From assembly GCA_011321815.1 (NCBI GenBank), contig DROS01000019.1:4118-68117 (forward strand): a stretch of 64,000 nucleotides of DNA. Direction: 5' to 3'. Within the stretch, counting starts at the first letter, position 1. Every line of letters starts with the position of its first letter. A program made the translations under genes and the position numbers. Source of the stretch: Gammaproteobacteria bacterium (lineage in GTDB: Bacteria; Pseudomonadota; Gammaproteobacteria; SZUA-152). Shown piece after piece: positions 1 to 27,136 of the stretch. The notes under the pieces are model-generated. The model was not told where the DNA came from. It saw only the letters and a program-made list of their open reading frames with translations, and ran no database searches.

Positions 1-106
1 TCAGTGTTTATGAACGTTTTTTTTCTTTTTGGCGCCATGCTCATGTACCTTTGTTGTACCTGTTGCTGTTTAGTGGTGTGGTGCATGTGATTGCTGTGCA
101 TATGTA

Positions 107-1741
107 TTGAATGGCATGTTTTTACCAAGGATAATTTTTGTTGTCGGGGTAATGCTGTTTATCGCTGTACTGAACTACGTGCAGGCGGGAATGCTGGATT
201 CGATGGAGAAGGCGTTAATGCCGGGTGAACTTTCCGCAGCTCATGCCCGGTTTGAAAATAATTGCACAGATTGCCACAAATTATTCGGACAGGAACAACA
301 AAACCGCTTATGCCTGGATTGTCATGATCATAAAAATATCGCTGGAGATATTAAAAACGGAAGGGGATATCACGGGCGTATTCCTGATGTAAAAAACAAG
401 GAATGTCGTGTTTGTCATTCAGAACACAAAGGACGGCAGTATTCCATCGTGCTACTGGATAAACAGGCTTTTGACCATCGTTTAACCGATTTTCCCCTGC
501 GTGGACGACATGGTGATGCACCCTGTCAGGCTTGCCATAAAAACAATAAAAAAACCGGTAAAGCAAAACCTTATCACCAGGCGCCGAAACAATGTGTCAA
601 GTGTCACAAACCTGATGATGCGCATGATGGACGCCTGGGAAAACAGTGCGGTAGTTGCCATACACAAATGCGCTGGCAGAATTTTCGCTTTGATCATGCG
701 ACGACCAAGTTCAAGTTAAAAGGAAAACACAAAGGTGTGGAATGCCGTTTATGTCACCCGCAAGAACGTTACAGTGGTGTGCCCGGAAAATGTGTTGCCT
801 GTCACAAAGGTGATGATAAACACAAAGGGCGCTATGGTAAAAAATGTCAGGACTGTCACTCAGTATCTGGCTGGGGAAGCCAGAAATTTGATCACAACAA
901 GGATACGGACTATCCGCTGAAGGGGCGACACATGTCGGTGACCTGCCAGCAGTGCCATCGCAGCGAAGGCTTTAAAGTCTATGTGAAGGAAAACACGAAG
1001 AAGAAAAATAAAAAATCAACTACGGATTGTTATGCCTGTCACCGTTTACAGGACGAACACAAAGGGCAATACGGGCGTAAATGTCACGCTTGCCACACGG
1101 TGAAAGCCTGGAATAAATCTACGTTTGACCATAAAAAAACAGATTTCCCGCTGAAGGGAAAACATAAAAAAGTGGCCTGCGGTGATTGTCACCCGGGTGT
1201 GCTTTATGAAGAAAATTTAAAAACGGACTGTTTTTCCTGCCATCGACAGGACGATGTACATCATGAAAAACAGGGGAAAAAATGCCAGGAATGTCACAAT
1301 GAAGAAGGTTGGCGGCATAACGTTAATTTTGATCATGATTTGGTGAAATTCCCATTATTGGGTGCCCATGTAGCACTGGCATGCGAAGAGTGCCACGATT
1401 CCGGAAGTTTTAAGGACACCAAAGCATCGTGTTTAGCGTGTCATAAGGGCAATGATGTACACGAGCGCAGTCTGGGAGCGCAATGTGATGTGTGTCATTA
1501 CGTGGGCGACTGGAAGGCCTGGGAGTTTGATCATGATAAACAGACAGATTTTGAGCTGGAAGGTAAACACAAAGGCATTGTCTGTAAGGCCTGCCACCGG
1601 GAACCTGTGAAGAACGAGATGGATATGCCCAATGATTGTCAGGATTGCCATTTGCAGGATGACGCACATGACGGAGAGTTTGGGCGTCGCTGCCAGCGTT
1701 GCCACAATACGGAATCTTTCTCTGAAATAAATATGCGGTAA
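107..1741 (+). CDS. Secreted multihaem c-type cytochrome with 21 CXXCH motifs, built from repeated c7-like triads (FDH..CxxCH / CxxCH / DxHDGxxGxxCxxCH). It has an N-terminal signal-anchor helix. The true start may be the ATG at 116.
   Basis: I counted 21 CXXCH motifs in the translation. They fall into a periodic three-haem pattern with extra conserved His, like polymerised cytochrome c7. The N-terminus MFLPRIIFVVGVMLFIAVLNYVQA is hydrophobic. Coordinate 107 is a TTG and an ATG lies at 116. Confidence 0.85.
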   Translation: MNGMFLPRIIFVVGVMLFIAVLNYVQAGMLDSMEKALMPGELSAAHARFENNCTDCHKLFGQEQQNRLCLDCHDHKNIAGDIKNGRGYHGRIPDVKNKECRVCHSEHKGRQYSIVLLDKQAFDHRLTDFPLRGRHGDAPCQACHKNNKKTGKAKPYHQAPKQCVKCHKPDDAHDGRLGKQCGSCHTQMRWQNFRFDHATTKFKLKGKHKGVECRLCHPQERYSGVPGKCVACHKGDDKHKGRYGKKCQDCHSVSGWGSQKFDHNKDTDYPLKGRHMSVTCQQCHRSEGFKVYVKENTKKKNKKSTTDCYACHRLQDEHKGQYGRKCHACHTVKAWNKSTFDHKKTDFPLKGKHKKVACGDCHPGVLYEENLKTDCFSCHRQDDVHHEKQGKKCQECHNEEGWRHNVNFDHDLVKFPLLGAHVALACEECHDSGSFKDTKASCLACHKGNDVHERSLGAQCDVCHYVGDWKAWEFDHDKQTDFELEGKHKGIVCKACHREPVKNEMDMPNDCQDCHLQDDAHDGEFGRRCQRCHNTESFSEINMR

Positions 1742-1789: not shown

Positions 1790-4048
1790 ATGAAAATCAG
1801 GAATTGTTTAACACAGCATGTGTTGCTGCTGGTTACTTTGTGGTTGCTATTGCCTGCATTGAGCATGGCTGCGCCAAAACAGGATTTTGACCATTTTGAG
1901 ACGGGCTTTCCCTTGTCCGGCCAGCATCAGACGGTGCCTTGCGCCGCCTGTCACTTGCGTGGAGTCTTCAAGGGAACGCCATTGACCTGCAACGGTTGCC
2001 ATAATGGTTCCATTGCACCCGGCAAGCCGGATCGGCATATCGCCAACACAGAGACTTGTGATGATTGTCATACCATCTTTGCCTGGCAGGCTGCGGCTAT
2101 GGATCATTCGTCTGTGACAGGTTCATGTACGCAATGCCACAATACCCGTTTGTCTGCGCAGCATATTCAAACCCGTGCCCAGTGTGATGAATGTCATGGC
2201 ACAGTGGGTTGGTTGCCTGCGAGATTTACGCATGATGCTGTATCGAAAAATTGCAGCAATTGCCATAATGGGATAACAGCAAAGGGAAAATCCGCGAACC
2301 ACATTCAGACAGCGGAGCAGTGTGATGGCTGTCATAACACTGTGGCCTGGTTACCCGCCCGCTTTGATCACGGAAGTGCGACGGGTTCATGCAGTAGTTG
2401 CCATAATGGAACGACGGCGACCGGGAAACACAGTGCTCATGTGACAACTTCAGGCGAGTGCGAACTTTGCCATGCGACGACAGCCTGGTTGCCTGCAACC
2501 TTTAATCACAGCTCATTCAGTGGCGCCTGCAACAGCTGTCATAACGGCGTGACGGCTACCGGTAAATCCGGCCGTCATTTACAAACCACATCTGATTGTG
2601 TTGATTGCCACAGCACCAATGCCTGGTTACCGGCAAATTTCTCACATGATGGCATTACGGGAACATGCAGTTCTTGCCATGACGGTGGTATTACGTCGGG
2701 TAAATCAAGTAATCATATTCAAACCACTGGCGAATGCGACGTGTGTCACAGCACGAATGCCTGGTTACCCACCCGCTTTGATCACGGCAGTGCGACGGGT
2801 TCATGCAGTAGTTGCCACAATGGAACGACGGCGACCGGGAAACACAGTGCTCATGTGACGACTTCAGGCGAGTGTGAACTTTGCCACAGCACGAATGCCT
2901 GGTTACCCGCCCGTTTTGATCACGGCAGCGCGACGGGTTCATGCAGCAGTTGCCATAATGGAACGACGGCGACCGGGAAACACAGCGCCCATGTGACGAC
3001 TTCAGGCGAGTGTGAACTTTGCCACAGCACGAGTGCCTGGTTACCCGCCCGCTTTGATCACGGCAGTGCGACGGGTTCATGCAGTAGTTGCCATAATGGA
3101 ACGACGGCGACCGGGAAACACAGTGCTCATGTGACAACTTCAGGCGAGTGTGAACTTTGCCACACGACGACAGCCTGGTTGCCCGCAACTTTTGATCACA
3201 ACTCGTTCAATGGCGCCTGCAACAGCTGCCACAACGGTGTGACGGCTACCGGTAAATCCGGCCGTCATTTACAAACTACATCTGATTGTGTTGATTGCCA
3301 CAGCACCAATGCCTGGTTACCGGCAAATTTCTCACATGATGGTATTACCGGAAGGTGCAGCTCTTGTCATGATGGTGGTGTTGCGCTGGGCAAATCCGGC
3401 ACTCACATTCAAACCACTGGTGAGTGTGATGTCTGTCATGGTACCAATGCCTGGTTGCCTGCCCGCTTTGATCATGGCAGTGCGACAGGTTCATGCAGTA
3501 GTTGCCATAATGGAACGACGGCGACCGGGAAACACAATAACCATGTGACGACTTCCGGGGAATGTGGAGTTTGTCATACAACAACGGCGTGGTTGCCTGC
3601 AATCTTCGATCATGATTCATCAAGCGGCCTTTGTAACAGTTGCCACAATGGAGTGACGGCAACGGGCAAGGCCGATAATCATTTCATTTCATCCAGGCAA
3701 TGTGACGAATGCCATACTACACAGAGCTGGACATCGGTACGCTATAACCATGTGGCGATCGGCTACCCAGGTGGCCATAATGGTTTGTCATGCAATGGAT
3801 GTCACAAAGGAAACAGCGAATCTTCAGTCTGGGAAAATCCTGGCTACAAACCTGATTGTGCAGGTTGCCATGCGGATGACTGGGAAAGTGATGAACATAA
3901 AAAAACGAAAAATCCACGCACCATTTTTTATACCATCAGTGAATTGCGTGATTGTTCATCATCATGTCATGAGTACACGGACAACACGTTCACGACTATT
4001 AAAAAGAGACGTAACAGAGAACATAGCCCGAATGGCGGAGATTTTTAA
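1790..4048 (+). CDS. Secreted giant multihaem c-type cytochrome with about 29 CXXCH plus one CX3CH. It is made of about 14 tandem 46-aa di-haem modules. The signal peptide is MKIRNCLTQHVLLLVTLWLLLPALSMA.
   Basis: The ORF track starts at a TTG at 1754. An ATG at 1790 is preceded by AGGTGA and followed by a classic Sec signal peptide. The translation is a string of modules WLPxxF[DNS]H-x5-CxxCHNGxTAxGKxxxH[IV]xTxxxCxxCHxTxA. Confidence 0.85.
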   Translation: MKIRNCLTQHVLLLVTLWLLLPALSMAAPKQDFDHFETGFPLSGQHQTVPCAACHLRGVFKGTPLTCNGCHNGSIAPGKPDRHIANTETCDDCHTIFAWQAAAMDHSSVTGSCTQCHNTRLSAQHIQTRAQCDECHGTVGWLPARFTHDAVSKNCSNCHNGITAKGKSANHIQTAEQCDGCHNTVAWLPARFDHGSATGSCSSCHNGTTATGKHSAHVTTSGECELCHATTAWLPATFNHSSFSGACNSCHNGVTATGKSGRHLQTTSDCVDCHSTNAWLPANFSHDGITGTCSSCHDGGITSGKSSNHIQTTGECDVCHSTNAWLPTRFDHGSATGSCSSCHNGTTATGKHSAHVTTSGECELCHSTNAWLPARFDHGSATGSCSSCHNGTTATGKHSAHVTTSGECELCHSTSAWLPARFDHGSATGSCSSCHNGTTATGKHSAHVTTSGECELCHTTTAWLPATFDHNSFNGACNSCHNGVTATGKSGRHLQTTSDCVDCHSTNAWLPANFSHDGITGRCSSCHDGGVALGKSGTHIQTTGECDVCHGTNAWLPARFDHGSATGSCSSCHNGTTATGKHNNHVTTSGECGVCHTTTAWLPAIFDHDSSSGLCNSCHNGVTATGKADNHFISSRQCDECHTTQSWTSVRYNHVAIGYPGGHNGLSCNGCHKGNSESSVWENPGYKPDCAGCHADDWESDEHKKTKNPRTIFYTISELRDCSSSCHEYTDNTFTTIKKRRNREHSPNGGDF
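2348..3727. repeat. Intragenic tandem array of ten 138-bp units, each encoding one 46-aa di-haem module. There are three variants, A, B and C. Units at 2762-2899, 2900-3037 and 3038-3175 are near-identical. The 414-bp block A-B-C at 2348-2761 is duplicated at 3038-3451.
   Basis: Direct reading of the sequence. The string tggttacccgcccgctttgatcacggcagtgcgacgggttcatgcagtagttgccataatggaacgacggcgaccgggaaacacagtgctcatgtgac recurs with only a few substitutions. Confidence 0.8.
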
Positions 4049-4079: not shown

Positions 4080-6170
4080 ATGAGAGGTTTTCGGTTTTGG
4101 TGTCAGGTGATGGGAGTATACTTCGCAGTATCTTCCCAGGTCTGGGCATTGCCAAATCAATCACTGGAAAGTATTGAATATCTGACTCATCAAGGGATGG
4201 CTGCGATAGAAATTGGTTTTGCCCAACCAGTGATTTACATGTCGAATTTTCCGCTGGAATCTGGTGCAACGCTACAAATTTTTATCGGGCCGCGCACTGC
4301 TGTGGATGTCGATGTGGATAAGCTTCCTTATACCCAGGCGATGCGCGCACCAGATTCCGGTGAGATACCGCTGCGGCAAGTGACATTCCATATTAACGAA
4401 GCCGGTGAAACCTCCATTGTTGTGGATTTTAAGCGGGTGGTGAATTTTACGATATCGGCTGGTCGTCGTTTTAACACGTTGATGATTGTTTTTCCGGAAT
4501 TGAGAATCACGCAGGCGGTACCGTTGAAAAAAGCACGTACTGTGGAGATAGTTGACAGCAAAGCTTTCAGGTTGCTGGTGTCGGGGCGCAAGGCTCTCAA
4601 GCAGCATAAAAACAAAATGGCTATTCGTATTTTTACCGGGATGCTGGAATTGCCCGAAAGCCCGGAACGACAGGAGGCAATGGAATTGTTGGGAGTGGCA
4701 CGGGAACGCAACCAGCAAAAGGCACATGCCAGGGCCATGTATCAGGAATACCTGAAGCAATACCCAAAGAGTGAAGGCGCGGCACGGGTCAAACAGCGGT
4801 TACAGGATTTATTGCATGCACAGTTAAAACCCCGGGCGAAACTGAAACCCATCAAGAAATCAAAGGACAGAAAAACTACTTCACGTATCTATGGCAGCTT
4901 TGCCCAGTATTATTATCATGGTGAAAATAGCGTTGAAAATGCCGGTAGCTCGGTGGATCAATCCTTGTTATTGAATCAATTGTCTGTTAATTGGCGTATT
5001 CGTAATGCCGACTATGATATTCGCAACTTTGTTTACACCAACCAGAGTTATGACTTTTCCAGTGAGACAGGTAAGGCAGTGACTCTGGAGACGGCGTATA
5101 GTCAATTTAAAAACAGCCGCTGGGGTTTTTCGGGTCGTGCTGGTCGGCAAACCGGCTCCGGCGGTGGCGTGTTGGGTAAGTTTGACGGATTACGCGCCAG
5201 TTATGATGCTACACGAAGAATCGCTGTGAATGCTGTGGCGGGCTATCCTGTCAATATCAGTGACAAACGCAGTATTCAATCACAAAAACCTTTTTGGGGA
5301 ATCGGCTTTGAATGGGATGGTGAGGGCAAAGGTGTTGATATCCTACCTTATTATATCCAACAGAAGGTAGATGGCATTATTGACCGTGAGGCTATTGGTA
5401 GCGAATTCAGATTTTTTCATGAACAAGGGAATTTTTACGGACTTATTGACTATGATATTCATTATGCGGACCTGAATATTTATCTTTTTCGTGGCCAATA
5501 TAATTGGCGAAAAAATACGATTTTTAACCTGAATCTTGATTATCGAAACAGCCCTTTATTGTTTACCTCTCATGCCTTGATTGGGCGTACGGATGTGTCG
5601 AGCATTGGTGAGTTACTGAATGTGCATAGTGAACGCAGTATTAATGAATTAGCAGAAAGCCGTGTGGGTGATTCAAGTACATTTTCATTGGGCGTGAGCC
5701 ATACCTTAAGTACACGTTATCAACTTAATGCAGACCTGACATTTGCCAGACAGAATTTTATCATCGACGGTGTCACGCCGGGCGTTTTAATCAGTGAGAA
5801 TGACCAGCAAATTTATTTTTCCGGTCAGCTTATTGCCAACAAATGGTTTAATGATCGTGATACCAGTGTGCTGGGTATGCGTCTCTCGCAGACCGGTAGC
5901 TATGATGAACTTTCGTTATCCGCCTCTAACCGGTTACTGTTGAACAATAAATGGAAATTCGACACCCGAATGCGCGTTGATTTACGTCAAGGTAATTCAG
6001 GTGAAGATTTAACCAGATACCGTCCTTCAGTGAAATGGAATTTCCGTCACAATCAGACGATGTATTACGAAACGGAAATTGGTGTGGAATGGTGGCGTTA
6101 TGGTGGCGATTCCAATAATCCTGATTTTCGACGGTTGTTTGCTAACGTAGGTTATCGCTGGGATTTTTGA
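4080..6170 (+). CDS. Outer-membrane beta-barrel protein of 696 aa. The N-terminal ~250 aa form a periplasmic, partly helical TPR-like region. The C-terminal part is a large beta-barrel ending in the beta-signal ...NVGYRWDF. It is a candidate porin or translocon partner of the two cytochromes.
   Basis: The signal peptide is MRGFRFWCQVMGVYFAVSSQVWA. The C-terminal 450 aa are rich in alternating aromatic/hydrophilic dyads and in Asn, Tyr and Gly. The protein ends in a terminal Phe with an x-Y-x-W-x-F pattern. The gene lies immediately downstream of the cytochromes, 32 nt away. Confidence 0.6.
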   Translation: MRGFRFWCQVMGVYFAVSSQVWALPNQSLESIEYLTHQGMAAIEIGFAQPVIYMSNFPLESGATLQIFIGPRTAVDVDVDKLPYTQAMRAPDSGEIPLRQVTFHINEAGETSIVVDFKRVVNFTISAGRRFNTLMIVFPELRITQAVPLKKARTVEIVDSKAFRLLVSGRKALKQHKNKMAIRIFTGMLELPESPERQEAMELLGVARERNQQKAHARAMYQEYLKQYPKSEGAARVKQRLQDLLHAQLKPRAKLKPIKKSKDRKTTSRIYGSFAQYYYHGENSVENAGSSVDQSLLLNQLSVNWRIRNADYDIRNFVYTNQSYDFSSETGKAVTLETAYSQFKNSRWGFSGRAGRQTGSGGGVLGKFDGLRASYDATRRIAVNAVAGYPVNISDKRSIQSQKPFWGIGFEWDGEGKGVDILPYYIQQKVDGIIDREAIGSEFRFFHEQGNFYGLIDYDIHYADLNIYLFRGQYNWRKNTIFNLNLDYRNSPLLFTSHALIGRTDVSSIGELLNVHSERSINELAESRVGDSSTFSLGVSHTLSTRYQLNADLTFARQNFIIDGVTPGVLISENDQQIYFSGQLIANKWFNDRDTSVLGMRLSQTGSYDELSLSASNRLLLNNKWKFDTRMRVDLRQGNSGEDLTRYRPSVKWNFRHNQTMYYETEIGVEWWRYGGDSNNPDFRRLFANVGYRWDF

Positions 6171-8817: not shown

Positions 8818-8849
8818 GCCCCCGGCAATTGCCGGGGGCTTTTGTTTTT
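8818..8849. terminator. Rho-independent terminator with stem gcccccggc-aatt-gccgggggc followed by TTTTGTTTTT. It sits between the OMP gene and the convergent lysR-type gene.
   Basis: A perfect 9-bp stem and a T-run are visible in the sequence. Confidence 0.65.
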
Positions 8850-9729
8850 ATGGGCTGCTTTTATTCATCGACTGAAGCGTGTCAATCATCGCACTTGCCG
8901 CATTCGACAGGGTGCGCGCCTGATGATATACAACCCCCAGTTGACGGACCAGCTTTATCCCGCGTATTTTCAATGCAAGCAGTTCTCCGTTCAGCATGCT
9001 GCGTGGTAACACCGACCAGCCCAGCCCCACTCCTACCATCATTTTGATGGTTTCAAGATAATTTGTGGTCATGCCTGCGCCGAGTTTTCCTCCTGCCTGG
9101 ACAACACTGCGCTCCAGTAATTGCCGGGTGTAAGTGCCTGGTGAGGGCAGGATTGCCGGGTGTGCTGCGAGCTGTTGAAAACCGAGCCTGGATTTTTTGG
9201 CCAAGGGGTGCTCGCGGGCCACAACAATGTCCAGCGGGTCCGGCCAGATGAGTTCGCTTTTTAAGTCCGCAAGTGGTTCCAGGGGCAGGGTGACAATGCC
9301 CAATTCGAGATCACCCGTTTGTACCGCCCGGCAGGCCGCTTCGGAATCCATAAACTGCAAATCCAATGCCACGTCAGGGTAGGTCTTGCTGAACCGCCGA
9401 AGCACGGGCGGTAAACGATGCAGGCCAATATGGTGGCTGGTGCCAATACTCAGTTGCCCGGCTACTGTGCCAGTGAGATTGGAAATCAGCCGGCGACTGT
9501 CTTCGATTTCATGCAGGATAGCTCTGGCGCGCGGCAGTAATGCACGCCCCGCTTCGGTAAGACTGACGCGACGGGCAATACGGTCAAACAGTGCTGCGCC
9601 CAGCTCGGCCTCTAAAGTCGCCACCCGTTTGCTGACCGCAGGCTGGGTAAGATAGAGCTGCTCGGCGGCAAGCGAAAAAGACTTCAGTTCCGCAGCAACA
9701 ATGAAGGTGTGCAGGTTGGCAGTGTCCAT
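8848..9729 (-). CDS. LysR-family transcriptional regulator, divergent from leuC.
   Basis: The N-terminal HTH is LHTFIVAAELKSFSLAAEQLYLTQPAVSKRVATLE, followed by a LysR substrate-binding domain. The ORF track starts at 9747. The second Met at 9729 gives a canonical LysR N-terminus. Confidence 0.85.
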   Translation of the reverse strand: MDTANLHTFIVAAELKSFSLAAEQLYLTQPAVSKRVATLEAELGAALFDRIARRVSLTEAGRALLPRARAILHEIEDSRRLISNLTGTVAGQLSIGTSHHIGLHRLPPVLRRFSKTYPDVALDLQFMDSEAACRAVQTGDLELGIVTLPLEPLADLKSELIWPDPLDIVVAREHPLAKKSRLGFQQLAAHPAILPSPGTYTRQLLERSVVQAGGKLGAGMTTNYLETIKMMVGVGLGWSVLPRSMLNGELLALKIRGIKLVRQLGVVYHQARTLSNAASAMIDTLQSMNKSSP

Positions 9730-9745
9730 GGGAATAGTTTTATCC

Positions 9746-9760
9746 ATTCCTTTATGGAAT
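9746..9760. promoter_or_regulatory. Perfect palindrome ATTCC-TTTAT-GGAAT matching the T-N11-A pattern. It is a candidate LysR-type autoregulatory / leuC control site.
   Basis: It lies in the lysR-leuC divergent spacer just upstream of the lysR start. LysR boxes typically have the form T-N11-A. Confidence 0.35.
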
Positions 9761-9870: not shown

Positions 9871-11295
9871 ATGGCTGGCAAAACCCTTTACGACAAATTG
9901 TGGGACGCGCATGTAGTGCGTACTCAGGACGACGGTACCTGTCTGCTTTATATTGACCGGCATTTGGTACACGAGGTGACTTCGCCGCAAGCCTTTGAGG
10001 GGTTGCGTTTGGCGGGCCGCAAACCGTGGCGGGTGGATGCCAACCTTGCCACACCGGATCATAACGTACCCACCACACCACCGGAAAAGGGTGGGCGGGC
10101 GCAGGGTATCGTCGATCCTGTGGCGCGTTTGCAGGTGGAAACACTGGACAATAATTGCGATGAATTTGGCATTACCGAATTCAAAATGGATGACATCCGC
10201 CAGGGCATCGTGCACGTCATCAGCCCTGAACAGGGTGCAACGTTGCCGGGCATGACCCTGGTGTGTGGTGATTCGCATACCTCTACCCATGGTGCATTGG
10301 GTGCGCTGGCGCACGGTATTGGCACTTCCGAGGTGGAGCATGTATTGGCCACGCAATGCCTGATTCAGCGCAAGTCAAAAAACATGTTGGTGAGCATTGA
10401 TGGTGCGGTAGGCCCAGGTGTGACGGCCAAAGACATCGTACTGGCCATCATCGGCAGGATCGGCACCGCAGGTGGCACCGGTTATGCCATCGAATTTGGT
10501 GGTGAAGGTATTCGTGATCTTTCCATTGAGGGCCGCATGACCGTGTGCAACATGGCCATTGAAGGTGGTGCGCGTGCGGGCATGGTGGCCGTGGATCAAA
10601 AGACGATTGATTATGTGAAGGGGCGTCCCTATGCGCCGACAGGGGGATTATGGGAGGCAGCGGTGAGCGCATGGCATGAATTGCATTCGGATGACGACGC
10701 ACAGTTTGATCATGTGGTGCGTATTAATGGTGCGGATATTCAGCCGCAGATCACCTGGGGAACATCACCGGAAATGGTGGTTCCTGTGGATGGCCGGGTG
10801 CCTGATCCGGCACAGGAAAGTGATGCGGTAAAAGCGGATGGTATGCAGGCCGCGCTGGCTTACATGGGGCTGGAAGCCAATACGCCGATTAACGAAATCA
10901 GTATTGATAAAGCCTTCATCGGTTCCTGTACCAACTCGCGTATTGAAGATTTGCGTGCGGCAGCCATGGTCGCCAAAGGACGCAAGGTGGCGGACAACGT
11001 GAAGCTGGCCATGGTGGTGCCGGGTTCCGGCTTGGTGAAAGCACAAGCGGAAAAAGAAGGTCTTGATAAGATTTTTACCGATGCCGGTTTTGAATGGCGC
11101 GAGCCGGGTTGCTCCATGTGTCTGGCCATGAATGCCGACAGACTGGAACCGGGTGAGCGTTGTGCCTCCACCTCGAACCGAAACTTTGAAGGGCGGCAGG
11201 GGCAGGGGGGACGCACGCATCTGGTGAGCCCGGCCATGGCAGCAGCGGCAGCGGTTATGGGGCATTTTGTGGATGTAAGAGGACTTGATATTTAA
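9871..11295 (+). CDS. leuC: 3-isopropylmalate dehydratase large subunit.
   Basis: This is the aconitase-family LeuC. The N-terminus is [16 protein letters not shown], the protein is 474 aa, and leuD and leuB follow. Confidence 0.95.
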
Positions 11296-11393
11296 CGCAA
11301 AGGGCGCAGAAGCGCAAAGGACGCAAAGATTTTATTGTTTTAGAGTCTTTTCTTAGCGTACTTTGCGTCTTTGCGAGCTTGCGTTTCTAACGC
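11293..11393. repeat. Intergenic palindromic element, copy a (leuC-leuD spacer). The left arm is TAACGCAAAGGGCGCAGAAGCGCAAAGGACGCAAAG. The right arm is CTTTGCGTCTTTGCGAGCTTGCGTTTCTAACGC.
   Basis: The imperfect ~34-bp inverted arms are visible in the sequence. The element belongs to the same family as copies b and c. Confidence 0.6.
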
Positions 11394-11405
11394 GGAGTTT
11401 GAACA

Positions 11406-12041
11406 ATGGAAAAATTTTCGAAAATAACAGGCATCGTGGCACCCATGGATCGTTCCAACGTGGATACCGATGCCATTATTCCCAAACAGTTTTTGAAGTC
11501 CATCAAGCGTTCGGGGTTTGGTCCCAACCTGTTTGATGAGTGGCGCTATCTTGATCATGGTGAGCCGGGTATGGATAACAGTATTCGGCCATTGAACCCG
11601 GACTTTGTGCTCAACCAGCCGCGTTATCAGGGAGCGAGCATTTTATTGGCGCGAGAGAATTTTGGCTGTGGCTCCTCGCGCGAACATGCTCCTTGGGCAT
11701 TGCTTGATTACGGCTTTCGCGTCATCATCGCGCCTGGTTACGCGGACATTTTTTTCAACAACTGTTTCAAGAACGGTATTCTGCCCATTGTGCTTGATGC
11801 ACAGGTAGTGGACAGATTATTTCAGGCTGTGGCGGCTAACGAGGGCTATGCGTTAGGTGTTGACCTTGAAGCGCAGACCATCATCACGCCGGATGGCAAG
11901 AACATTACTTTTGATGTGGAAGAATTTCGTAAACATTGTTTGTTGAACGGGCTGGATGATATTGGGCTGACTTTGCAACATGTGAACGACATTCGTGCTT
12001 ATGAGGCACGGCGTAGTGCAGAAGCGCCGTGGTTGTTTTGA
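11406..12041 (+). CDS. leuD: 3-isopropylmalate dehydratase small subunit.
   Basis: The protein is 211 aa and matches the LeuD family. It sits between leuC and leuB. Confidence 0.95.
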
Positions 12042-12051
12042 AAAGAGTATA

Positions 12052-12144
12052 TAAACGCAGAGGATACGGGGGCGCAGAGACGCAAGGTTTTTTTGAATTG
12101 CTTTCTCTGTGCCTCCGTGTCTCTGCGGTCTCTGCGTTAAATAC
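12052..12144. repeat. Intergenic palindromic element, copy b (leuD-leuB spacer). It uses CGCAGAG / CTCTGCG arms in place of CGCAAAG / CTTTGCG. Its ends are TAAACGCAG... and ...TGCGTTAAATAC.
   Basis: Visible in the sequence. The arm substitutions are compensatory and preserve pairing. Confidence 0.6.
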
Positions 12145-12157
12145 TGGAGTTGGATAA

Positions 12158-13225
12158 ATGAAAAAGATTGCAATTTTACCTGGTGATGGTATCGGCCCCG
12201 AGATTGTTGCTGAAGCAGTAAAGGTGCTGGAGTGTTTGCGTGCCGATGGTCTTGATATCGAAATGAATGAAGCTCCTGTCGGTGGTGCCGGTTACGAAGC
12301 CAGCGGCAAGCCATTACCCGATGATACGCTGGCGCTGGCCAAAGAGGCCGATGCAATTCTGCTGGGCGCGGTGGGTGGTTATCAGTGGGAATCACTGGAC
12401 ATCAGTGTACGTCCAGAAAAAGGACTGCTGGGTTTGCGGTCAGAGCTGGAGCTGTTTTCCAACCTGCGTCCTGCAATTCTTTACAAACAGTTGGCCGATG
12501 CCTCCACACTGAAGCCGGAAGTGGTTGCCGGACTGGACATTATGATCGTACGTGAACTCACCGGCGGTATTTATTTTGGTCAACCGCGTGGTGTGCGTAC
12601 TCTCGATAACGGTGAGAGACAGGGTTTTAACACGCTGGTTTATTCCGAGTCCGAGATCGAACGCATCGGACGCTCTGCTTTTGATATCGCCATGAAACGC
12701 GGCAAAAAAATCTGTTCTGTGGACAAGGCCAATGTGTTGGAATGCACGGAACTGTGGCGTGACGTGATGGAACATGTGGCCAAAGACTATCCCGAAGTGG
12801 CGTTGTCACACATGTATGTGGACAACGCGGCAATGCAGCTGGTGCGCGCCCCCAAACAATTTGATGTGATGGTCACCACCAACATGTTTGGGGATATTCT
12901 TTCTGATTGCGCCGCCATGTTGACGGGGTCTATTGGTATGCTGCCCTCGGCCTCGTTGGATGCCAATGGCAAAGGTATGTATGAACCCATTCATGGTTCG
13001 GCTCCCGATATTGCCGGGCAGAACGTGGCTAATCCACTGGCGACGATTTTATCCGTGGCGATGATGCTACGTTATTCACTGAATGAAAGTGCGATGGCAG
13101 ACCGTATTGAAAAAGCCGTTGAAAGTGTGTTGGATCAGGGGTTGCGTACGGCAGATATTTACAGTGATGGCATGCAAAAAGTGAGCACCAGTGAAATGGG
13201 CGATGCAGTCGTATCGGCTTTATAA
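12158..13225 (+). CDS. leuB: 3-isopropylmalate dehydrogenase.
   Basis: The N-terminus [17 protein letters not shown] and a length of 355 aa fit LeuB. Confidence 0.95.
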
Positions 13226-13237
13226 AGCGCGATGTTG

Positions 13238-13330
13238 TAAACGCAAAGGACGCTGAGACGCAAAGAACACAAAGTTTTTTGTTCTTTTTCTTTGCGCCCT
13301 CTGCGCCTTTGCGAACTTTGCGTTAAATAC
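13238..13330. repeat. Intergenic palindromic element, copy c (leuB-asd spacer). Its ends are TAAACGCAAAGGACGCTGAGACGCAAAG and CTTTGCGCCCTCTGCGCCTTTGCGAACTTTGCGTTAAATAC.
   Basis: Visible in the sequence. It shares termini with copies a and b. Confidence 0.6.
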
Positions 13331-13360
13331 TCAATATCAAAAAAAGCAGGTAATGGAAAA

Positions 13361-14473
13361 ATGAAAAAAGTCGGATTAATCGGTTGGCGCGGCATGGTGG
13401 GTTCAGTGCTCATGCAACGTATGCGCGATGAGAAAGATTTTGACCTCATCGAGCCGGTGTTTTTTACCACGTCACAAACCGGACAACCAGGCCCGGACAT
13501 CGGTAAAGATGTACCGTTATTAAAGGATGCAAAATCCATTAATGAGCTGCAAGCAATGGATGTCATCATTACCTGTCAGGGCGGCGGTTATACTGAAGAT
13601 ATCTATCCGCAGTTACGCAAGGCGGGGTGGGGGGGGTACTGGATTGATGCCGCTTCTACGCTGCGCATGAAAGATGATGCCATTATTGTGCTTGATCCGG
13701 TGAATCTCGATGTTATCAAAAACGGCCTGGCCAACGGCACTAAAACCTTTGTCGGTGGCAACTGCACTGTAAGCCTGATGTTAATGGCCATTGGCGGGCT
13801 GTTTGAAAATGATCTGGTGGAATGGATTTCACCCATGACTTATCAGGCGGCTTCTGGTGCTGGCGCGCAGAACATGCGGGAACTGATCCGGCAGATGGGT
13901 GCGATCAATGATTCGGTCAAAGACCTTAACGAAGACCCTGCTGCCGTAATACTGGACATCGACAAAACACTGGCCGGTTTTTTGCGTTCTGACAACTACC
14001 CCAAAGACAACTGGGGAGTGCCGTTGGCGGGCAGTCTGATCCCCTGGCTGGACTCCCCGCTGGACAGTGGTCAGACCCGCGAGGAATGGAAAGCCGAGGT
14101 GGAGACCAACAAAATTCTTGGCCGTACTGATAACGTCATTCCCGTCGACGGTATCTGTGTGCGTATTGGCGCCATGCGTTGCCACAGCCAGGCATTGACC
14201 ATCAAATTGAAGAAAGATGCACCACTGGATGAAATTTATCATATGCTGGCACAGGCAAACGATTGGGTGAAAGTCGTACCCAATGATCGTGAGGCCACGG
14301 TGAAAGATCTGACTCCTGCCGCCGTTACCGGTACGTTGACAGTACCCGTGGGGCGGTTGCGCAAACTCACCATGGGTAATGATTATCTATCTGCCTTTAC
14401 GGTGGGCGATCAGTTGTTATGGGGTGCAGCGGAACCTTTACGTCGTATGTTGCGGCTGTTGTTGGCAACATGA
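13361..14473 (+). CDS. asd: Aspartate-semialdehyde dehydrogenase.
   Basis: The N-terminus [21 protein letters not shown] matches Asd, and the protein is about 371 aa from the ATG at 13361. The ORF track starts earlier, inside the repeat element. Confidence 0.9.
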
Positions 14474-14536: not shown

Positions 14537-15571
14537 GTGAGTAAAACGTTTAATGTGGCTGTAGTGGGCGCAACCGGTCTGGTGGGTGAGGCCCTTGTAT
14601 CATTTCTGGAGGAACGTGATTTTCCTGTAGGTGATTTTTTTCCATTGGCAAGCATGCGTACAGCCGGGAAAAAGGTGGCGCTGGGCGGTAAGTATCACAC
14701 CGTGAAGGATGTGGCGGATTTTGATTTTTCACAAGCTGATATTGTCGTGTTTTGCGCGAGTGATGAGGTTTCTGCGGAATATGTACCGCGCGCTACTGCG
14801 GCGGGTTGTATGGTGGTTGATACCTCCGCACAGTTTGTGGATGACGATGATGTGCCGCTGGTGATTCCTGAAGTGAATCCACAGGCAATTACTGGTTATG
14901 TTCATCGTAAGGGGCGGCGCAATATTATTTCCAGTCCTGACAGTTCAACAATACAAATGCTGGTTGCTCTCAAACCCATTTATGATGTTGTTGGCATTGA
15001 GCGTATAAATGTGGTTAGTTATCAGGCAGTGACAGCATCAGGCAAATCCGGGATGGATGAACTTGCCAGCCAGACAATTGCCCTGTTGAATATGCAGGAC
15101 GCTAAACGTAAAATGTTCCCGCAGCAGATTGCCTTTAATGTTTTACCGCAAGTCACGGTTGCTGAAGAAAATGGTTACTTGTCCTGCGAAATGGAAATGC
15201 TGCGGGCAACGCAAAAAATTCTTGCTGATGGTGACATTTTTATCAACCCGACTACGGTGCAGGCCCCCGTGTTTTTCGGCCACTCCCAGGCAGTGCATGT
15301 GGAGACTGGCGCAAAACTGGGTGTAGACGAGGCGCGGGATCTGTTACGACAGGCCCCAGGGGTGGAGCTGCTGGATGATGATGAGCCCGGCAATTCGCCC
15401 ACGGCTGTCACACATGCGGCGGGTGAGGACGCAGTATTTGTAGGTCGTGTCCGTGAAGATATTTCTCATCCTTGTGGTTTAAATTTGTGGGTAGTTGCCG
15501 ATAATGTGCGCAAAGGGGCGGCGCTGAATTGTGTGCAAATCCTTGAGCTGTTGGTAAAAGAGGGCTTGTAA
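14537..15571 (+). CDS. usg: Asd paralogue, an aspartate-semialdehyde dehydrogenase-like protein of the USG-1 family.
   Basis: It has the NAD-binding N-terminus VAVVGATGLVGEALV and a GTG start. It sits in the asd - usg - fimV - truA position seen in pseudomonads. Confidence 0.75.
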   Translation: MSKTFNVAVVGATGLVGEALVSFLEERDFPVGDFFPLASMRTAGKKVALGGKYHTVKDVADFDFSQADIVVFCASDEVSAEYVPRATAAGCMVVDTSAQFVDDDDVPLVIPEVNPQAITGYVHRKGRRNIISSPDSSTIQMLVALKPIYDVVGIERINVVSYQAVTASGKSGMDELASQTIALLNMQDAKRKMFPQQIAFNVLPQVTVAEENGYLSCEMEMLRATQKILADGDIFINPTTVQAPVFFGHSQAVHVETGAKLGVDEARDLLRQAPGVELLDDDEPGNSPTAVTHAAGEDAVFVGRVREDISHPCGLNLWVVADNVRKGAALNCVQILELLVKEGL

Positions 15572-23213: not shown

Positions 23214-24074
23214 ATGAGCTGGCTAAAAAAACTAATCCCGTCAAGAATCAGCACCCAAAGCGGCCAGAAAAAAGCTGTGCCGGAAGGTATCTGGGCCAAA
23301 TGTACAGCGTGCAGCGCAGTATTGTATCGCGCAGAACTGGAACGCAACCTGGATGTTTGTCCCAAGTGCGACCATCATATGCGCATAGGCGCGCGTCGTC
23401 GTCTGGACATTTTTCTCGATGAAGAACCGCGCGAGGAAATCGGCGCAGAAGTCGTGCCGGTTGACGCACTTAAATTTAAAGACGTTAAAAAATATAAAGA
23501 CCGCCTGACCCAGGCACAAAAAGCCACAGGAGAGACAGATGCCCTGGTGAGTATGATGGGGCAGGTACAGGGAGTGCCGCTGGTGGCAACGGCCTTCGAA
23601 TTCAAATTCATGGGCGGTTCCATGGGCTCAGTGGTGGGCGAGCGTTTTGTGCGTGCGGTGAATACCTCCCTGGAGCACAACATTCCGCTGGTGTGTTTCT
23701 CCGCCAGCGGTGGCGCACGCATGCAGGAAGCACTGTTTTCGCTGATGCAAATGGCCAAGACCAGCGCAGCCCTGGCGAAACTCAGTAAACAGGGTATTCC
23801 GTTTGTGTCCGTGCTGACTGATCCCACCATGGGCGGGGTATCGGCCAGTCTGGCCATGCTGGGTGATGTACATATTGCCGAGCCCAAAGCGCTGATTGGT
23901 TTTGCCGGACCGAAGGTCATTGAGCAGACCGTGCGCCAAACCCTGCCGGAAGGTTTTCAACGCAGCGAGTTTTTACAGGAAAAAGGCGCGGTGGACATGG
24001 TGATTGACCGACGCGACCTGCGCGACCGTATTGCCAATTTATTGGCCATCTTAACGGGACAGCCAGCGCCTTAA
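23214..24074 (+). CDS. accD: Acetyl-CoA carboxylase carboxyltransferase beta subunit.
   Basis: An N-terminal Zn ribbon is present (CTACSAVLY...CPKCDHH), followed by a carboxyltransferase domain. Confidence 0.9.
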
Positions 24075-24149
24075 AAACAGACGTCAGGAAAACCACGGCC
24101 CAGAATCAGTCTTTACTGTTTGTTATATTTACAACCCAAACAATAAATC

Positions 24150-24455
24150 ATGACCACCGCCTCAGCCCGCGCGATCCCCGACGGCATCGACTACCATTTT
24201 GCGAAAGAATCACAGACTGTTGACGCACTGATAAACTCGCTTTACGCCAGCCCTTCCAAGCTGGCTGTTGAGCACGTCAAGGCGATTAACAGCCATCTGA
24301 AAGCCGGACAGGTTCAGGCCGGACAGCTGATGATTGTCACACCCCGAACAGCCAACAATGCAGCCGTTTCGAGGCAGATCACGAAGCGTGTACCATTGGT
24401 GCGGATTTGTCGTGTGGCAAGACCACTGCGGGTGATGTTGGAAAAAACGCGGTGA
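24150..24455 (+). CDS. Hypothetical protein of 101 aa at the edge of an AT-rich insertion.
   Basis: Only the ORF supports this call. I recognise no domain. Confidence 0.25.
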   Translation: MTTASARAIPDGIDYHFAKESQTVDALINSLYASPSKLAVEHVKAINSHLKAGQVQAGQLMIVTPRTANNAAVSRQITKRVPLVRICRVARPLRVMLEKTR

Positions 24456-25009
24456 AAGAGTGTATGACACAATCTGTCAGTGTCATCTGATGGAAATGCC
24501 AGAGTTAATACTTACCGTTATTTTTTTGGGCGTGATAACAGGAATTTTAATGATTGTGCTGCTGTTTTATATTGGCCGCACCTGCATTAAAGAAATTGAC
24601 TATGAACTTTTTATCTACTAACGACATTTACCATCCTTAGCGGATTATTCTTACCCAAGCAAAGGACCGGATAGCGATTATATTATTGTTAAGTCCTGGC
24701 GAAATTTCGGTACGGAGAAATTGTCAGTCAGCCAGTCTTTTTATAATTTACCGGTAAAACGAATTAACAAGACAGTAAACATATTGACGAAGGTCGGTGC
24801 GTTTAATGTGGCGTGGTTGTATGGCTGTCGTTTTGATGGTGAAACACCCCGATTAAAGCATAAGTGGGAATCGCATTATTTCGTGCAAGTTCTTTAGAAG
24901 CTTTCGTATTGTTTTCTGGTTTGCATGAAGCGATATGTCTATACGGTATGGGTGAATTCTTCTAGAATGCAGCTTTTAGCTTGGCTGGGCAATTTTTTGG
25001 TGCTGAACG

Positions 25010-27136
25010 ATGACTAAAATAACTGATAACAGACAATCCCCTACCAATATGGATGCCCACAAAAAAACCTCAGATTGTGATTCGTTGTTGAAACTCTGGA
25101 ATTTGCGCATTCTGACCCGGTTGAATGTATTCAACCGGTTTTTTGATCGTTATGGTGGTCTGCATGACCCGGAAACGATGCATGTTTTGGGTTTGTCAGC
25201 GTTTTTACATGACGAAAATGTTGGTAAAAAAGACATATTTTCCAATCTGTCCAATACATTAAAATCACTGGAAAGTGATACGCTGACCTCTCCCCAGGAT
25301 GTTTTTTCCGTCAATATTTCAGTTCTTCAAAAATCGTTAAATCTGACACAGTGTGAGATCGATATATTGCGGTTTGTCATCGTATCGGGTTCGTCTGCGG
25401 GGTTTAATATGGTGGTCGAGACGCTTGGGGAAATGAGCAATGAACAAATCAGGAACAGCCTGTCGATAATCCTGAATGTTCCCCGCAATGAGATTGATAA
25501 TGCCATGCGCACCAATGGTACATTGATATCTTCGGGCTTGTTGCGCATCAATACCAGTGGCCACTATATGCATTCATTGCAGCAGTGCTTTGATGTCCCA
25601 CACAGTATCAAATATGCCTTGACTCAGGAGCAGAATAATCCCGGGGCAATATTACAATGTTTTTTTAAAATGGTGGATCAGTCGCACCTGTCAATTGAAG
25701 ACTTCCCTCACTTAACAGCCGATATTGATCTATTGACATGCTATTTACAGTCAGCTGAAAAGAAAAACATTCAGGGGATTAACGTATTGATATACGGTGA
25801 ACCCGGCACAGGTAAAACCGAGCTGGTGAAAACCTTAAGCCAGTACTGCGGGTTTGAGTTATACGAAATCACCATGCAGGATATGGAAGGTAATCCCATT
25901 GATGGAAAAGACCGTTTTGCTGCTTATCAGCTGACTCAGAAAATGTTGGCCAATAAAGAAAAATCAGCCATTTTGTTTGATGAAATAGAAGATGCTTTTC
26001 CTGATGTGAATTTCAGCCCGTTTGGTCATGTGACACGCCCTGATTTCAAAAAAGCCTGGGTGCATCAATTGTTGGAGGAAAATTCAATCCCTGCATTCTG
26101 GTTGTGTAACAGTGTGGTGCAATTGGATGATTCGGTGTTACGTCGTTTTGATTTTGTTCTGAATTTACGTTCTCCCACACGTAATATCCGCCGGCGTATT
26201 CTCGACAAATACCTCGGTCACCTGAATTTGAGTGAAGCATGGTTGGCGCAAATGGCGGAACATGAGCATTTGGTGCCGGCACATGCTGAGAGCGCCGCTA
26301 AAATTGCAGCTCATCTGAATGATGGAAACACAAAGGCGCTGGAGAAAAACCTGGAAAGGATTATTGGTAATAAACTACAAGTTCTGGGATTATCCCGTAA
26401 GCCCCGCACGGTTATCAGTCGTGAAACCCGCTATAGCCTTGAGTACCTGAATCCAGACCAGGATCTGGAGGCGTTAACCAGGGGGTTGCAACAAAATCAC
26501 CAGGCACGTATTTGTCTGTATGGTGCACCAGGTACCGGAAAAACAGCTTTTGCACATTATGTTGCGGAACAGCTGGACAAACCCTTGCTTAAAAAACAGG
26601 CTTCGGACATTCTCAGCAAATGGGTGGGGGAAGCAGAACAAAATATCGCTGCCATGTTTGATGAGGCTGAGGCTGACGACATGGTGTTGCTTGTTGATGA
26701 AGTGGATAGTTTTCTGCTGGATCGCGGTTCCTCTCAGAACTCATGGGAGATCACCCAGGTTAATGAATTATTGGTTCAAATGGAAAGCTTCAATGGCGTG
26801 TTTATTGCCTCTACAAATTTACTGAATCTTGTGGATGCTGCATCGTTACGCCGTTTCGATCTGAAGATAAAATTTGACTGCATGAAGCCCCAGCAGGCGT
26901 GGGCGCTGTTTCTGCAAATATTGGAAGAGCATGGCTGTACCGTTGAGGATGAAATGAAGCACTGGAAAACAGCGCTGGCGCGGTTCGATAATCTTACGCC
27001 TGGGGATTTTGCGACAGTCGTGCGCCAGTCCCGAAGCCTGAATAAAGCGATTCACCCGCGTTATTTATTGAATGCGCTGGAAAAGGAATGCAGGGCCAAG
27101 CCGGGCGCCGGAAAATCTATCGGGTTTATGGGTTGA
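25010..27136 (+). CDS. Tandem AAA+ ATPase of 708 aa with two classical AAA modules (GEPGTGKT...ILFDEIED...RRFD, then GAPGTGKT...LLVDEVD...STN...RRFD). An N-terminal domain of ~240 aa has unknown function.
   Basis: Walker A, Walker B, sensor-1 and RRFD motifs can be read twice in the translation. The gene lies in an AT-rich insertion between accD and folC. Confidence 0.75.
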   Translation: MTKITDNRQSPTNMDAHKKTSDCDSLLKLWNLRILTRLNVFNRFFDRYGGLHDPETMHVLGLSAFLHDENVGKKDIFSNLSNTLKSLESDTLTSPQDVFSVNISVLQKSLNLTQCEIDILRFVIVSGSSAGFNMVVETLGEMSNEQIRNSLSIILNVPRNEIDNAMRTNGTLISSGLLRINTSGHYMHSLQQCFDVPHSIKYALTQEQNNPGAILQCFFKMVDQSHLSIEDFPHLTADIDLLTCYLQSAEKKNIQGINVLIYGEPGTGKTELVKTLSQYCGFELYEITMQDMEGNPIDGKDRFAAYQLTQKMLANKEKSAILFDEIEDAFPDVNFSPFGHVTRPDFKKAWVHQLLEENSIPAFWLCNSVVQLDDSVLRRFDFVLNLRSPTRNIRRRILDKYLGHLNLSEAWLAQMAEHEHLVPAHAESAAKIAAHLNDGNTKALEKNLERIIGNKLQVLGLSRKPRTVISRETRYSLEYLNPDQDLEALTRGLQQNHQARICLYGAPGTGKTAFAHYVAEQLDKPLLKKQASDILSKWVGEAEQNIAAMFDEAEADDMVLLVDEVDSFLLDRGSSQNSWEITQVNELLVQMESFNGVFIASTNLLNLVDAASLRRFDLKIKFDCMKPQQAWALFLQILEEHGCTVEDEMKHWKTALARFDNLTPGDFATVVRQSRSLNKAIHPRYLLNALEKECRAKPGAGKSIGFMG

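Follow-up and report, generated by a model that had tools for sequence, protein, structure and literature searches.

Why should an outer-membrane beta-barrel carry a periplasmic tetratricopeptide-repeat (TPR) domain and be encoded beside genes for giant multihaem cytochromes, and does such a barrel house a cytochrome or export one? The question is raised by a 696-aa protein encoded near the start of the window, a 64,000-nucleotide stretch of contig DROS01000019.1 from an uncultured gammaproteobacterium. The protein is labelled 'hypothetical protein' of uncultured Gammaproteobacteria in the database, and a cluster mate is deposited as HHI92243.1. A preliminary description of the gene gave its open reading frame (ORF) and the terminal residues GYRWDF exactly as they are found, and regarded the combination of TPR domain and barrel as typical of export machines such as PgaA, BcsC and Slam rather than of MtrB-like sheaths; overall, that interpretation is partly supported by the present analysis. 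The reading towards which the evidence leans, if not heavily, is that a PCC3-type porin-cytochrome conduit has this protein as its outer-membrane subunit, and that in it the barrel would house a cytochrome while the periplasmic module would tether the conduit to the cell wall and dock a cytochrome.

The barrel gene is the last of four tightly spaced genes on the same strand, encoding an inner-membrane protein, a 21-haem cytochrome, a 29/30-haem cytochrome and the barrel protein (Table 1). Because the intergenic gaps are only 5, 48 and 31 nt, the set reads as one operon; a scan for consensus promoters and terminators at its boundary gave nothing informative. The cluster comprises four genes and not three because the window opens inside the inner-membrane protein gene: its first 110 nt are translated into a peptide ending in FWRHAHVPLLYLLLFSGVVHVIAVHMY and a stop codon, which is the C-terminal WX3HX13H motif (WRHAH-x13-H) of that protein. 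At locus L001, in a metagenome-assembled genome (MAG) whose barrel protein is 87% identical to that of the window, the gene is complete (300 aa), and this segment aligns with its 3' end. The complete protein has five hydrophobic segments, the third and fifth carrying WX3HX13H (at residues 102 and 275) and the fourth SGVMG (at residue 143), features that agree exactly with the published definition of the PCC3 inner-membrane protein (five transmembrane helices, SGXXG on the fourth, WX3HX13H on the third and fifth; PMC5566968). An inner-membrane ORF with these motifs is found upstream of the 21-haem gene in 35 of 41 related loci.

Table 1. Features of the barrel gene cluster and of the rest of the window, with positions in the window
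Feature	Position	Strand	Basis or remarks
PCC3 inner-membrane protein gene, 3' end, cut by window edge	3..110	+	Last 35 aa are SVYERFFSFWRHAHVPLLYLLLFSGVVHVIAVHMY followed by a stop, with second WX3HX13H motif; frame-3 translation
Periplasmic-type multihaem cytochrome, 541 aa, 21 CxxCH	116..1741	+	7 repeats of 3 haems, 25.8 aa per haem; Pfam Cytochrome_C7, E=3e-27
Large Thr/Ser/Gly/Ala-rich repeat cytochrome, 752 aa	1790..4048	+	29 CxxCH and one CX4CH; termed 'extracellular' in PCC3 nomenclature
138-bp tandem DNA repeats	2345..3321		Within the gene of the second cytochrome
PCC3-type outer-membrane barrel protein with periplasmic N-terminal module, 696 aa	4080..6170	+	ATG start, ends in GYRWDF and a stop
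Signal peptide, aa 1-23, without lipobox	4080..4148	+	Sequence (cleavage ...SSQVWA/LP); model helix aa 2-18, then low pLDDT at aa 19-25
Periplasmic beta-sandwich, aa 29-138, no family assigned	4164..4493	+	AlphaFold2 models
CpoB/YbgF-like TPR domain, aa 161-249, five helices, ~2.5 repeats	4560..4826	+	Sequence profiles and model
Lys-rich linker, aa 250-266	4827..4877	+	pLDDT <50 at aa 249-261; Lys-rich stretch aa 246-270 is HAQLKPRAKLKPIKKSKDRKTTSRI
Predicted beta-barrel, aa 267-696, ~22 strands, C-terminal signal GYRWDF	4878..6167	+	DSSP of AlphaFold2 model, pLDDT mostly >90
Predicted helical insert, 38 residues, aa 492-529, loop between strands 13 and 14	5553..5666	+	Helices 496-500, 509-515 and 518-527
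LysR-family regulator	8848..9747	-	Located between the four-gene cluster and leuC
Aspartate-semialdehyde dehydrogenase paralogues, gamma-type and B-type	13292..14473 and 14537..15571	+	Adjoining genes
Low-GC stretch	24001..27136		GC 0.43 against ~0.50; holds a 708-aa AAA ATPase
ORF of 1126 aa	34302..37682	-	Matches TOMM-system kinase/cyclase fusion protein

The PCC3 cluster was proposed by He et al. 2017 (PMC5566968) as a porin, two cytochromes called 'extracellular' and 'periplasmic', and an inner-membrane protein of ~300 aa, and was also covered by a survey of Gallionellaceae (PMC9900912). The gene order of the window is that of Slit_1446-1449 of Sideroxydans lithotrophicus (inner-membrane protein first, then the periplasmic and the extracellular cytochrome, and the porin last; order from PMC11429942), and the four genes share the order and orientation of PCC3, the inner-membrane gene being complete at the syntenic locus L001. 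By gene order, haem counts and motifs, the locus is assigned as a PCC3-type cluster. It lies in an ordinary chromosomal context that includes leuC, asd, a FimV-like gene, dxs and parC.

Haem numbers were counted as CxxCH motifs in stop-to-stop ORFs around the barrel genes, an ORF with at least 7 motifs being classed as multihaem. The 'periplasmic' cytochromes of PCC3 have a median of 21 haems (PMC5566968), and the example from a Riftia symbiont consists of 7 repeats of ~66 aa with 21 haems in all (He et al. 2017, PMC5566968). The first cytochrome of the window likewise has its 21 motifs in 7 repeats of 3, with a low ratio of amino acids to haems; in 35 of 45 related loci the equivalent gene has a motif count of exactly 21. 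The published 'extracellular' cytochromes have a median of 34 haems and are repetitive and rich in Thr, Ser, Ala and Gly (PMC5566968), a description that fits the second cytochrome (haem motifs exactly 23 aa apart, T+S+A+G 41.6%, 25 aa per haem), which is predicted to lie outside the cell. It has a Sec-type signal peptide without a lipobox, and no lipobox was found on the neighbouring cytochromes either here or in 43 of 45 relatives. The relatives of the second cytochrome contain from 9 to 89 haem motifs around a variable repeat core, and share conserved ends of ~100 aa (N-terminal) and ~130 aa (C-terminal), which are 45-49% identical and lie at the termini in 37-38 of 45 loci. The fixed ends and the wide range of haem numbers suggest that length changes by repeat expansion, possibly with assembly collapse in MAGs.

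These cytochromes also bear on an alternative, in which the barrel would be a translocon in the first place, closer to ushers than to PgaA, BcsC or Slam, with a TPR domain that captures the repeat cytochrome and a barrel that threads or displays it, housing being secondary or absent. The outer cytochrome is not a lipoprotein, no dedicated secretion genes were found within the conserved four-gene cluster, and fixed ends around a middle of 9-89 haems would suit a substrate that is thin and linear and docks by a fixed end. The extracellular site of the cytochrome is, however, itself a prediction (PMC5566968).

A scan of one genome per species yielded 297 relatives of the barrel protein, of which the best 80 were kept as loci (L001-L080). 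A multihaem ORF is encoded upstream on the same strand in 45 of the 46 loci with at least 5 kb of upstream sequence (two such ORFs in 43 of them), versus none downstream in the 57 loci with at least 5 kb on that side, the downstream flank serving as an internal control; the gene order is kept in nearly all homologous loci. Chance neighbourhood with cytochromes is ruled out by these counts. Two giant cytochromes and a dihaem-b-like membrane protein have in the barrel a dedicated partner, inherited together with them; the preliminary description had staked its idea on homologues neighbouring cytochromes, and they clearly do. Locus L038 (CP070738.1; barrel homologue 10001-12916, 971 aa, SPOR-type) is the sole homologue with full 10-kb flanks and no multihaem cytochrome nearby, and may be an orphan or a partner of cytochromes encoded elsewhere. 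Two complete clusters with outer cytochromes of different sizes are present in each of two genomes (L007 and L080 in MAG Ww183; L009 and L047 in UBA6920); two PCC3 clusters per genome have been reported for Sideroxydans ES-1 and CL21 too.

The family is large: an exhaustive hidden Markov model search found 2,759 representatives at 50% identity with E<=1e-3, including 1,287 with E<=1e-30, and the best 150 of the 2,759 all match from the TPR domain (profile position <=173) to the C-terminus. Close relatives, within 20 aa of the 696-aa length and at least 67% identical, number 21. Four paralogous TPR-barrel proteins (P0036, P0049, P0053 and P0056) are deposited under Kaarinaea lacus, a Nostocales cyanobacterium; they are 40-57% identical to the gammaproteobacterial protein of the window, and their probable source is an associated bacterium, contigs of which contaminate the assembly of the culture.

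AlphaFold2 models were built from family alignments for the whole protein (predicted local distance difference test, pLDDT, 87.6; predicted template-modelling score, pTM, 0.60) and separately for the N-terminal 240 aa (pLDDT 90.0). The C-terminal barrel and the Lys-rich linker before it are present as the preliminary description had them. DSSP assigns 23 barrel strands to the model; both termini must be periplasmic, so residues 642-647 and 650-656 are taken as one kinked strand, which gives ~22. The loops on what should be the outward side have 2-6 residues, with one of 14, except for the helical insert. The insert has a column conservation of 0.55 against a barrel mean of 0.50, with P492, L494, A499 and A525 near-invariant. 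Strand parity in the model would put it on the outer face or, if folded inward, inside the lumen; it might constrict or plug the lumen, or serve the outer cytochrome as a docking site.

Database comparisons of the barrel do not bear out the kinship with PgaA-, BcsC- and Slam-type exporters that had been proposed for it. No Pfam or NCBIfam model covers the barrel part, including BCSC_C and DUF560; a profile search of the PDB gave no significant match outside the TPR domain (TodX and CsgC, the non-TPR matches, at E ~0.5 or more); and Foldseek comparison of the barrel with the PDB returned only generic porins and ushers, at template-modelling (TM) scores of 0.2-0.5, with AlgE at rank 47 among generic barrels. 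Homology to PgaA, BcsC or Slam was found by none of Pfam (including 57 family members), NCBIfam, PDB sequence profiles and Foldseek. For MtrB, too, there was no Pfam or NCBIfam match to MtrB_PioB at E<=0.1 and no MtrB among the PDB profile matches at E<=10, and both homologies are rejected on these four comparisons. As to a barrel that is primarily a translocon, the usher barrels FimD and PapC do appear among the Foldseek matches, but score no better than generic porins (TM 0.2-0.36, root mean square deviation (rmsd) 7-16 A), and no homology to exporter families accompanies them. Its TPR domain is the best-conserved part of the protein, as a substrate-capturing domain might be, but comprises just ~2.5 repeats of the CpoB/BamD type, and the SPOR domain found in most relatives suggests anchoring over substrate handling. 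Such a translocon is accordingly considered unlikely.

The TPR-like helical region is genuine, beyond chance. With the single sequence, Pfam TPR_6 (E=6e-4) and TPR_16 (E=1.3e-3) match at aa 169-231, and NCBIfam YbgF (E=1.3e-7), CpoB (E=6e-6) and BamD match at aa 158-242; the TPR_6, TPR_16, YbgF and CpoB matches all lie under curated cut-offs. The match to the CpoB structure 6g5s improves from E=1.5e-4 with the single sequence to E=4.6e-7 with a profile of 69 family members, the PDB matches of the family profile at E<0.1 are TPR proteins throughout, and TPR_6 is found at E<=0.01 in 32 of 57 family members. In the model, the five helices superpose on the TPR domain of Xanthomonas YbgF (2xev) with an rmsd of 1.2-1.3 A over 84-87 aligned columns, and BamD and PilF match too. 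Residues 181-240 are the best-conserved part of the protein (column identity 0.66-0.73, versus 0.50 in the barrel and 0.41 in the beta-sandwich), and E202, A217, R236, Q239 and R240 are invariant. Thus the helices described earlier at aa ~150-250 are upheld, with fewer repeats than a long TPR array would have (only ~2.5), and the protein is no standard porin devoid of TPR homology, the finding that would have undone the earlier proposal. The N-terminal module as a whole is TPR-like only at aa ~160-250; its first ~135 residues are not helical and include a beta-sandwich that had been missed.

CpoB/YbgF and BamD (6g5s, 2xev and BamD structures) are the best matches for aa 161-249 in both sequence and structure. 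The scores nevertheless fall far under the family cut-offs (CpoB/YbgF, TIGR02795 and PRK10803: 32.3 bits versus 90.1 and 26.3 versus 383; BamD: 17 versus 81), so the relation appears to be one of common fold class and not of orthology. Neither CpoB nor BamD has a barrel; they are TPR proteins that are either soluble or lipoproteins, and CpoB/YbgF, which is associated with Tol-Pal, combines an N-terminal coiled coil with its C-terminal TPR domain and has no membrane domain. Family members P0355 ('outer membrane protein assembly factor BamD' at NCBI) and P0119 ('TolA-binding protein') appear to be misannotated on account of their TPR domain. That the protein might be an ordinary diffusion porin or a CpoB/BamD-like envelope-maintenance protein, merely located beside cytochrome genes, would accord with these nearest sequence relatives of its TPR domain, with the BamD label of P0355 and with the absence of a cytochrome within 10 kb at L038. 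It is hardly credible, being contradicted by the near-universal directional synteny (45/46, 43/46 and 35/41), by the scores far under the CpoB and BamD cut-offs and by the barrel itself, which CpoB and BamD do not have.

The TPR domain could alternatively be an NrfG-like maturation or holding chaperone fused to the barrel, handing haem-loaded cytochromes to an outer-membrane complex. Haem attachment to cytochromes takes place at the inner membrane, far from a domain tethered to the outer membrane, and no haem lyase genes are present in the cluster. The family profile does match E. coli NrfG (2e2e) weakly (E=0.008), but the match is far weaker than that of CpoB and spans aa 81-205, partly outside the TPR domain. 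In other electroactive Gammaproteobacteria, TPR proteins with a partial NrfG domain occur alongside the genes for cytochrome maturation (bioRxiv 10.1101/2022.05.06.490989). On these grounds a chaperone function is very unlikely.

The first domain of the periplasmic module varies within the family. A SPOR-like segment lies just upstream of the TPR domain in 44 of the 80 loci, in the place of the beta-sandwich and with the same cytochrome neighbours; in many homologues SPOR exceeds the Pfam threshold (up to 39.9 bits versus a cut-off of 21), and a few homologues have additional TPRs and reach ~1,080 aa. The outer cytochromes are alike between SPOR-type and non-SPOR loci, and the similar medians of 25 and 26 haems give no sign of a tie between the type of N-terminal module and cytochrome size. 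The beta-sandwich of the window has weak Foldseek likeness to the B2/AMIN domain of PilQ (4aqz, E=0.022, TM 0.46), while its top match, a chain of the periplasmic scaffold of the Campylobacter flagellum, has E=3e-5 but an rmsd of 22 A; a Pfam AMIN-like match is marginal (E=0.16, in 1 of 10 members), and hhalign of the beta-sandwich profile with the single sequence of the E. coli AmiC AMIN domain gave a probability of 0.3%. SPOR is a peptidoglycan-binding family, so the N-terminal module most likely ties the conduit to the cell wall. The exchange of beta-sandwich for SPOR would thus point to peptidoglycan tethering or scaffolding, rather than to a hallmark of exporters.

In MtrCAB, MtrB sheathes the haem wire of MtrA. 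The PCC3-type conduit favoured here would work likewise, the barrel sheathing a thin haem wire across the outer membrane, since 22 strands with minimal loops would leak and so need a filler. The wire would join the 21-haem cytochrome, whose length suffices to cross the periplasm, to the outer, Thr/Ser/Gly-rich cytochrome. The periplasmic module would act as a scaffold and not as the mark of an exporter: its variable first domain (SPOR in most relatives, beta-sandwich here) would tie the barrel to peptidoglycan, and its invariant TPR groove, which implies a conserved protein partner, would hold that partner beneath the mouth of the barrel. The partner would most likely be the 21-haem cytochrome, itself conserved, or one of the two conserved ends that the outer cytochrome has. 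The same TPR domain could guide the outer cytochrome into the lumen at assembly, so a sheath and a threading device need not be exclusive; because the outer cytochrome is without a lipobox and the conserved cluster without secretion genes, the barrel may be the route by which a thin wire is threaded out. A bolder version is a wall-anchored, usher-like threading sheath, in which SPOR or possibly an AMIN-like sandwich fixes the conduit to (septal/polar) peptidoglycan, and the TPR domain captures a conserved end of the repeat cytochrome and feeds the wire through the 22-strand barrel, where it stays as a cell-wall-registered, envelope-spanning conductor. That version is quite unlikely; if true, it would represent a principle of assembly and anchoring unknown in MtrCAB-type conduits.

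Several points weigh against a PCC3-type conduit with these attributes. Both the cytochrome that would fill the lumen and the binding partner of the TPR domain are inferred, and with a pTM of 0.60 the model does not fix where the periplasmic module sits with respect to the barrel. The matches of the beta-sandwich to AMIN or other peptidoglycan-binding families appear too weak for assignment. The reference PCC3 porins Slit_0867 and Slit_1449 were compared with this barrel by published description; the best 80 of the 297 relatives from the genome scan are from MAGs only, two protein searches returned no named isolate, and a plasmid tblastn search gave no match. In S. lithotrophicus the PCC3 clusters are not induced by Fe(II) (PMC8788666), the PCC3 extracellular cytochrome was undetected by proteomics (PMC11429942), and the role of PCC3 in extracellular electron transfer has been described as unverified (PMC8788666, PMC11429942).

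Elsewhere in the window, the LysR-family regulator scores 103.6 bits with the NCBIfam model 'multiheme cytochrome-associated LysR', which is below its cut-off of 210; an ORF alike in size and position, the only basis of the likeness, is found at the corresponding place in L001. Two aspartate-semialdehyde dehydrogenase paralogues, one gamma-type and one B-type, adjoin each other. The AAA ATPase in the low-GC stretch has partial likeness to the anti-phage ATPase IteA (E=1.5e-34, far under the cut-off), and the stretch may belong to a defence island or a mobile one. The 1126-aa ORF matches its TOMM-system family with E=1.9e-183, at 612 bits versus a cut-off of 706.

PCC3 clusters are widespread, the barrel family alone having ~2,760 representatives at 50% identity, and they encode some of the largest multihaem cytochromes known, while their function and structure are not established. 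The conserved CpoB-like TPR domain would offer a likely docking site for a cytochrome, and the usual SPOR domain a likely link to the cell wall; both handles bear on how a non-lipoprotein cytochrome of 30-89 haems crosses the outer membrane. In practice, the TPR motif E-LLG-ARE-N together with the barrel provides a cleaner marker for PCC3 clusters in metagenomes.

The barrel protein resembles PgaA, BcsC, PelB, AlgK/AlgE and Slam in having a periplasmic TPR domain followed by a C-terminal outer-membrane barrel in a single polypeptide. PgaA/BcsC/PelB-type proteins have a long TPR superhelix and barrels of 16-18 strands, Slam has a 14-strand DUF560 barrel behind an N-terminal TPR domain and a lipoprotein substrate encoded by an adjoining gene, and these exporters (14-18 strands) are encoded in operons for polysaccharide synthases, with synthase or glycosyltransferase neighbours, or for surface lipoproteins. 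The protein of the window, in contrast, has ~2.5 repeats, ~22 predicted strands and cytochrome neighbours, which sets it apart from PgaA, BcsC and PelB, and without a DUF560 match and with neighbouring cytochromes that have no lipobox it does not belong with Slam. The PilQ secretin, with its peptidoglycan-targeting AMIN domain, and SPOR proteins also place a periplasmic N-terminal domain before an outer-membrane pore, but PilQ forms a secretin pore, the protein here is predicted to be a monomeric barrel, and the AMIN likeness is without sequence confirmation.

MtrCAB, MtoAB and PioAB share with the cluster a barrel gene beside genes for periplasmic and outer multihaem cytochromes, the barrel being the presumed insulator of a haem wire. 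MtrB, a barrel of 26 strands, lacks a periplasmic domain, and MtrC is a lipoprotein. The barrel here, with ~22 predicted strands and a 240-aa periplasmic module, is not of the MtrB family; the outer cytochrome differs from MtrC in not being a lipoprotein, the cytochromes exceed those of MtrCAB-type systems two- to threefold in size, and their matches to DmsE/MtrA-family and MtrC-domain models are sub-threshold to moderate.

The closest likeness of the locus is to PCC3. In the published reading of that cluster the barrel is a trans-outer-membrane housing and the protein is called just a 'porin' (PMC5566968); no mention of a TPR domain on it was found in the part of the PCC3 literature that is searchable in full text, and none of SPOR or a beta-sandwich was seen in the passages of it that were consulted. 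A host such as Sideroxydans lithotrophicus ES-1 (Slit_0867-0870, Slit_1446-1449) is a named iron oxidiser, whereas the host here is an uncultured gammaproteobacterium. Since PCC3 has already been defined, from genomes alone, the cluster of the window is one of a known kind, and what is new is its domain architecture, apparently unreported, and not a new system. With PCC3 the locus shares the four-gene order, a first cytochrome of 21 haems, a repeat cytochrome with ~25 aa per haem and the motifs of the inner-membrane protein, and the ~22 strands of the modelled barrel equal the 22 predicted by He et al. 2017 for the porin of Leptothrix cholodnii (PMC5566968).

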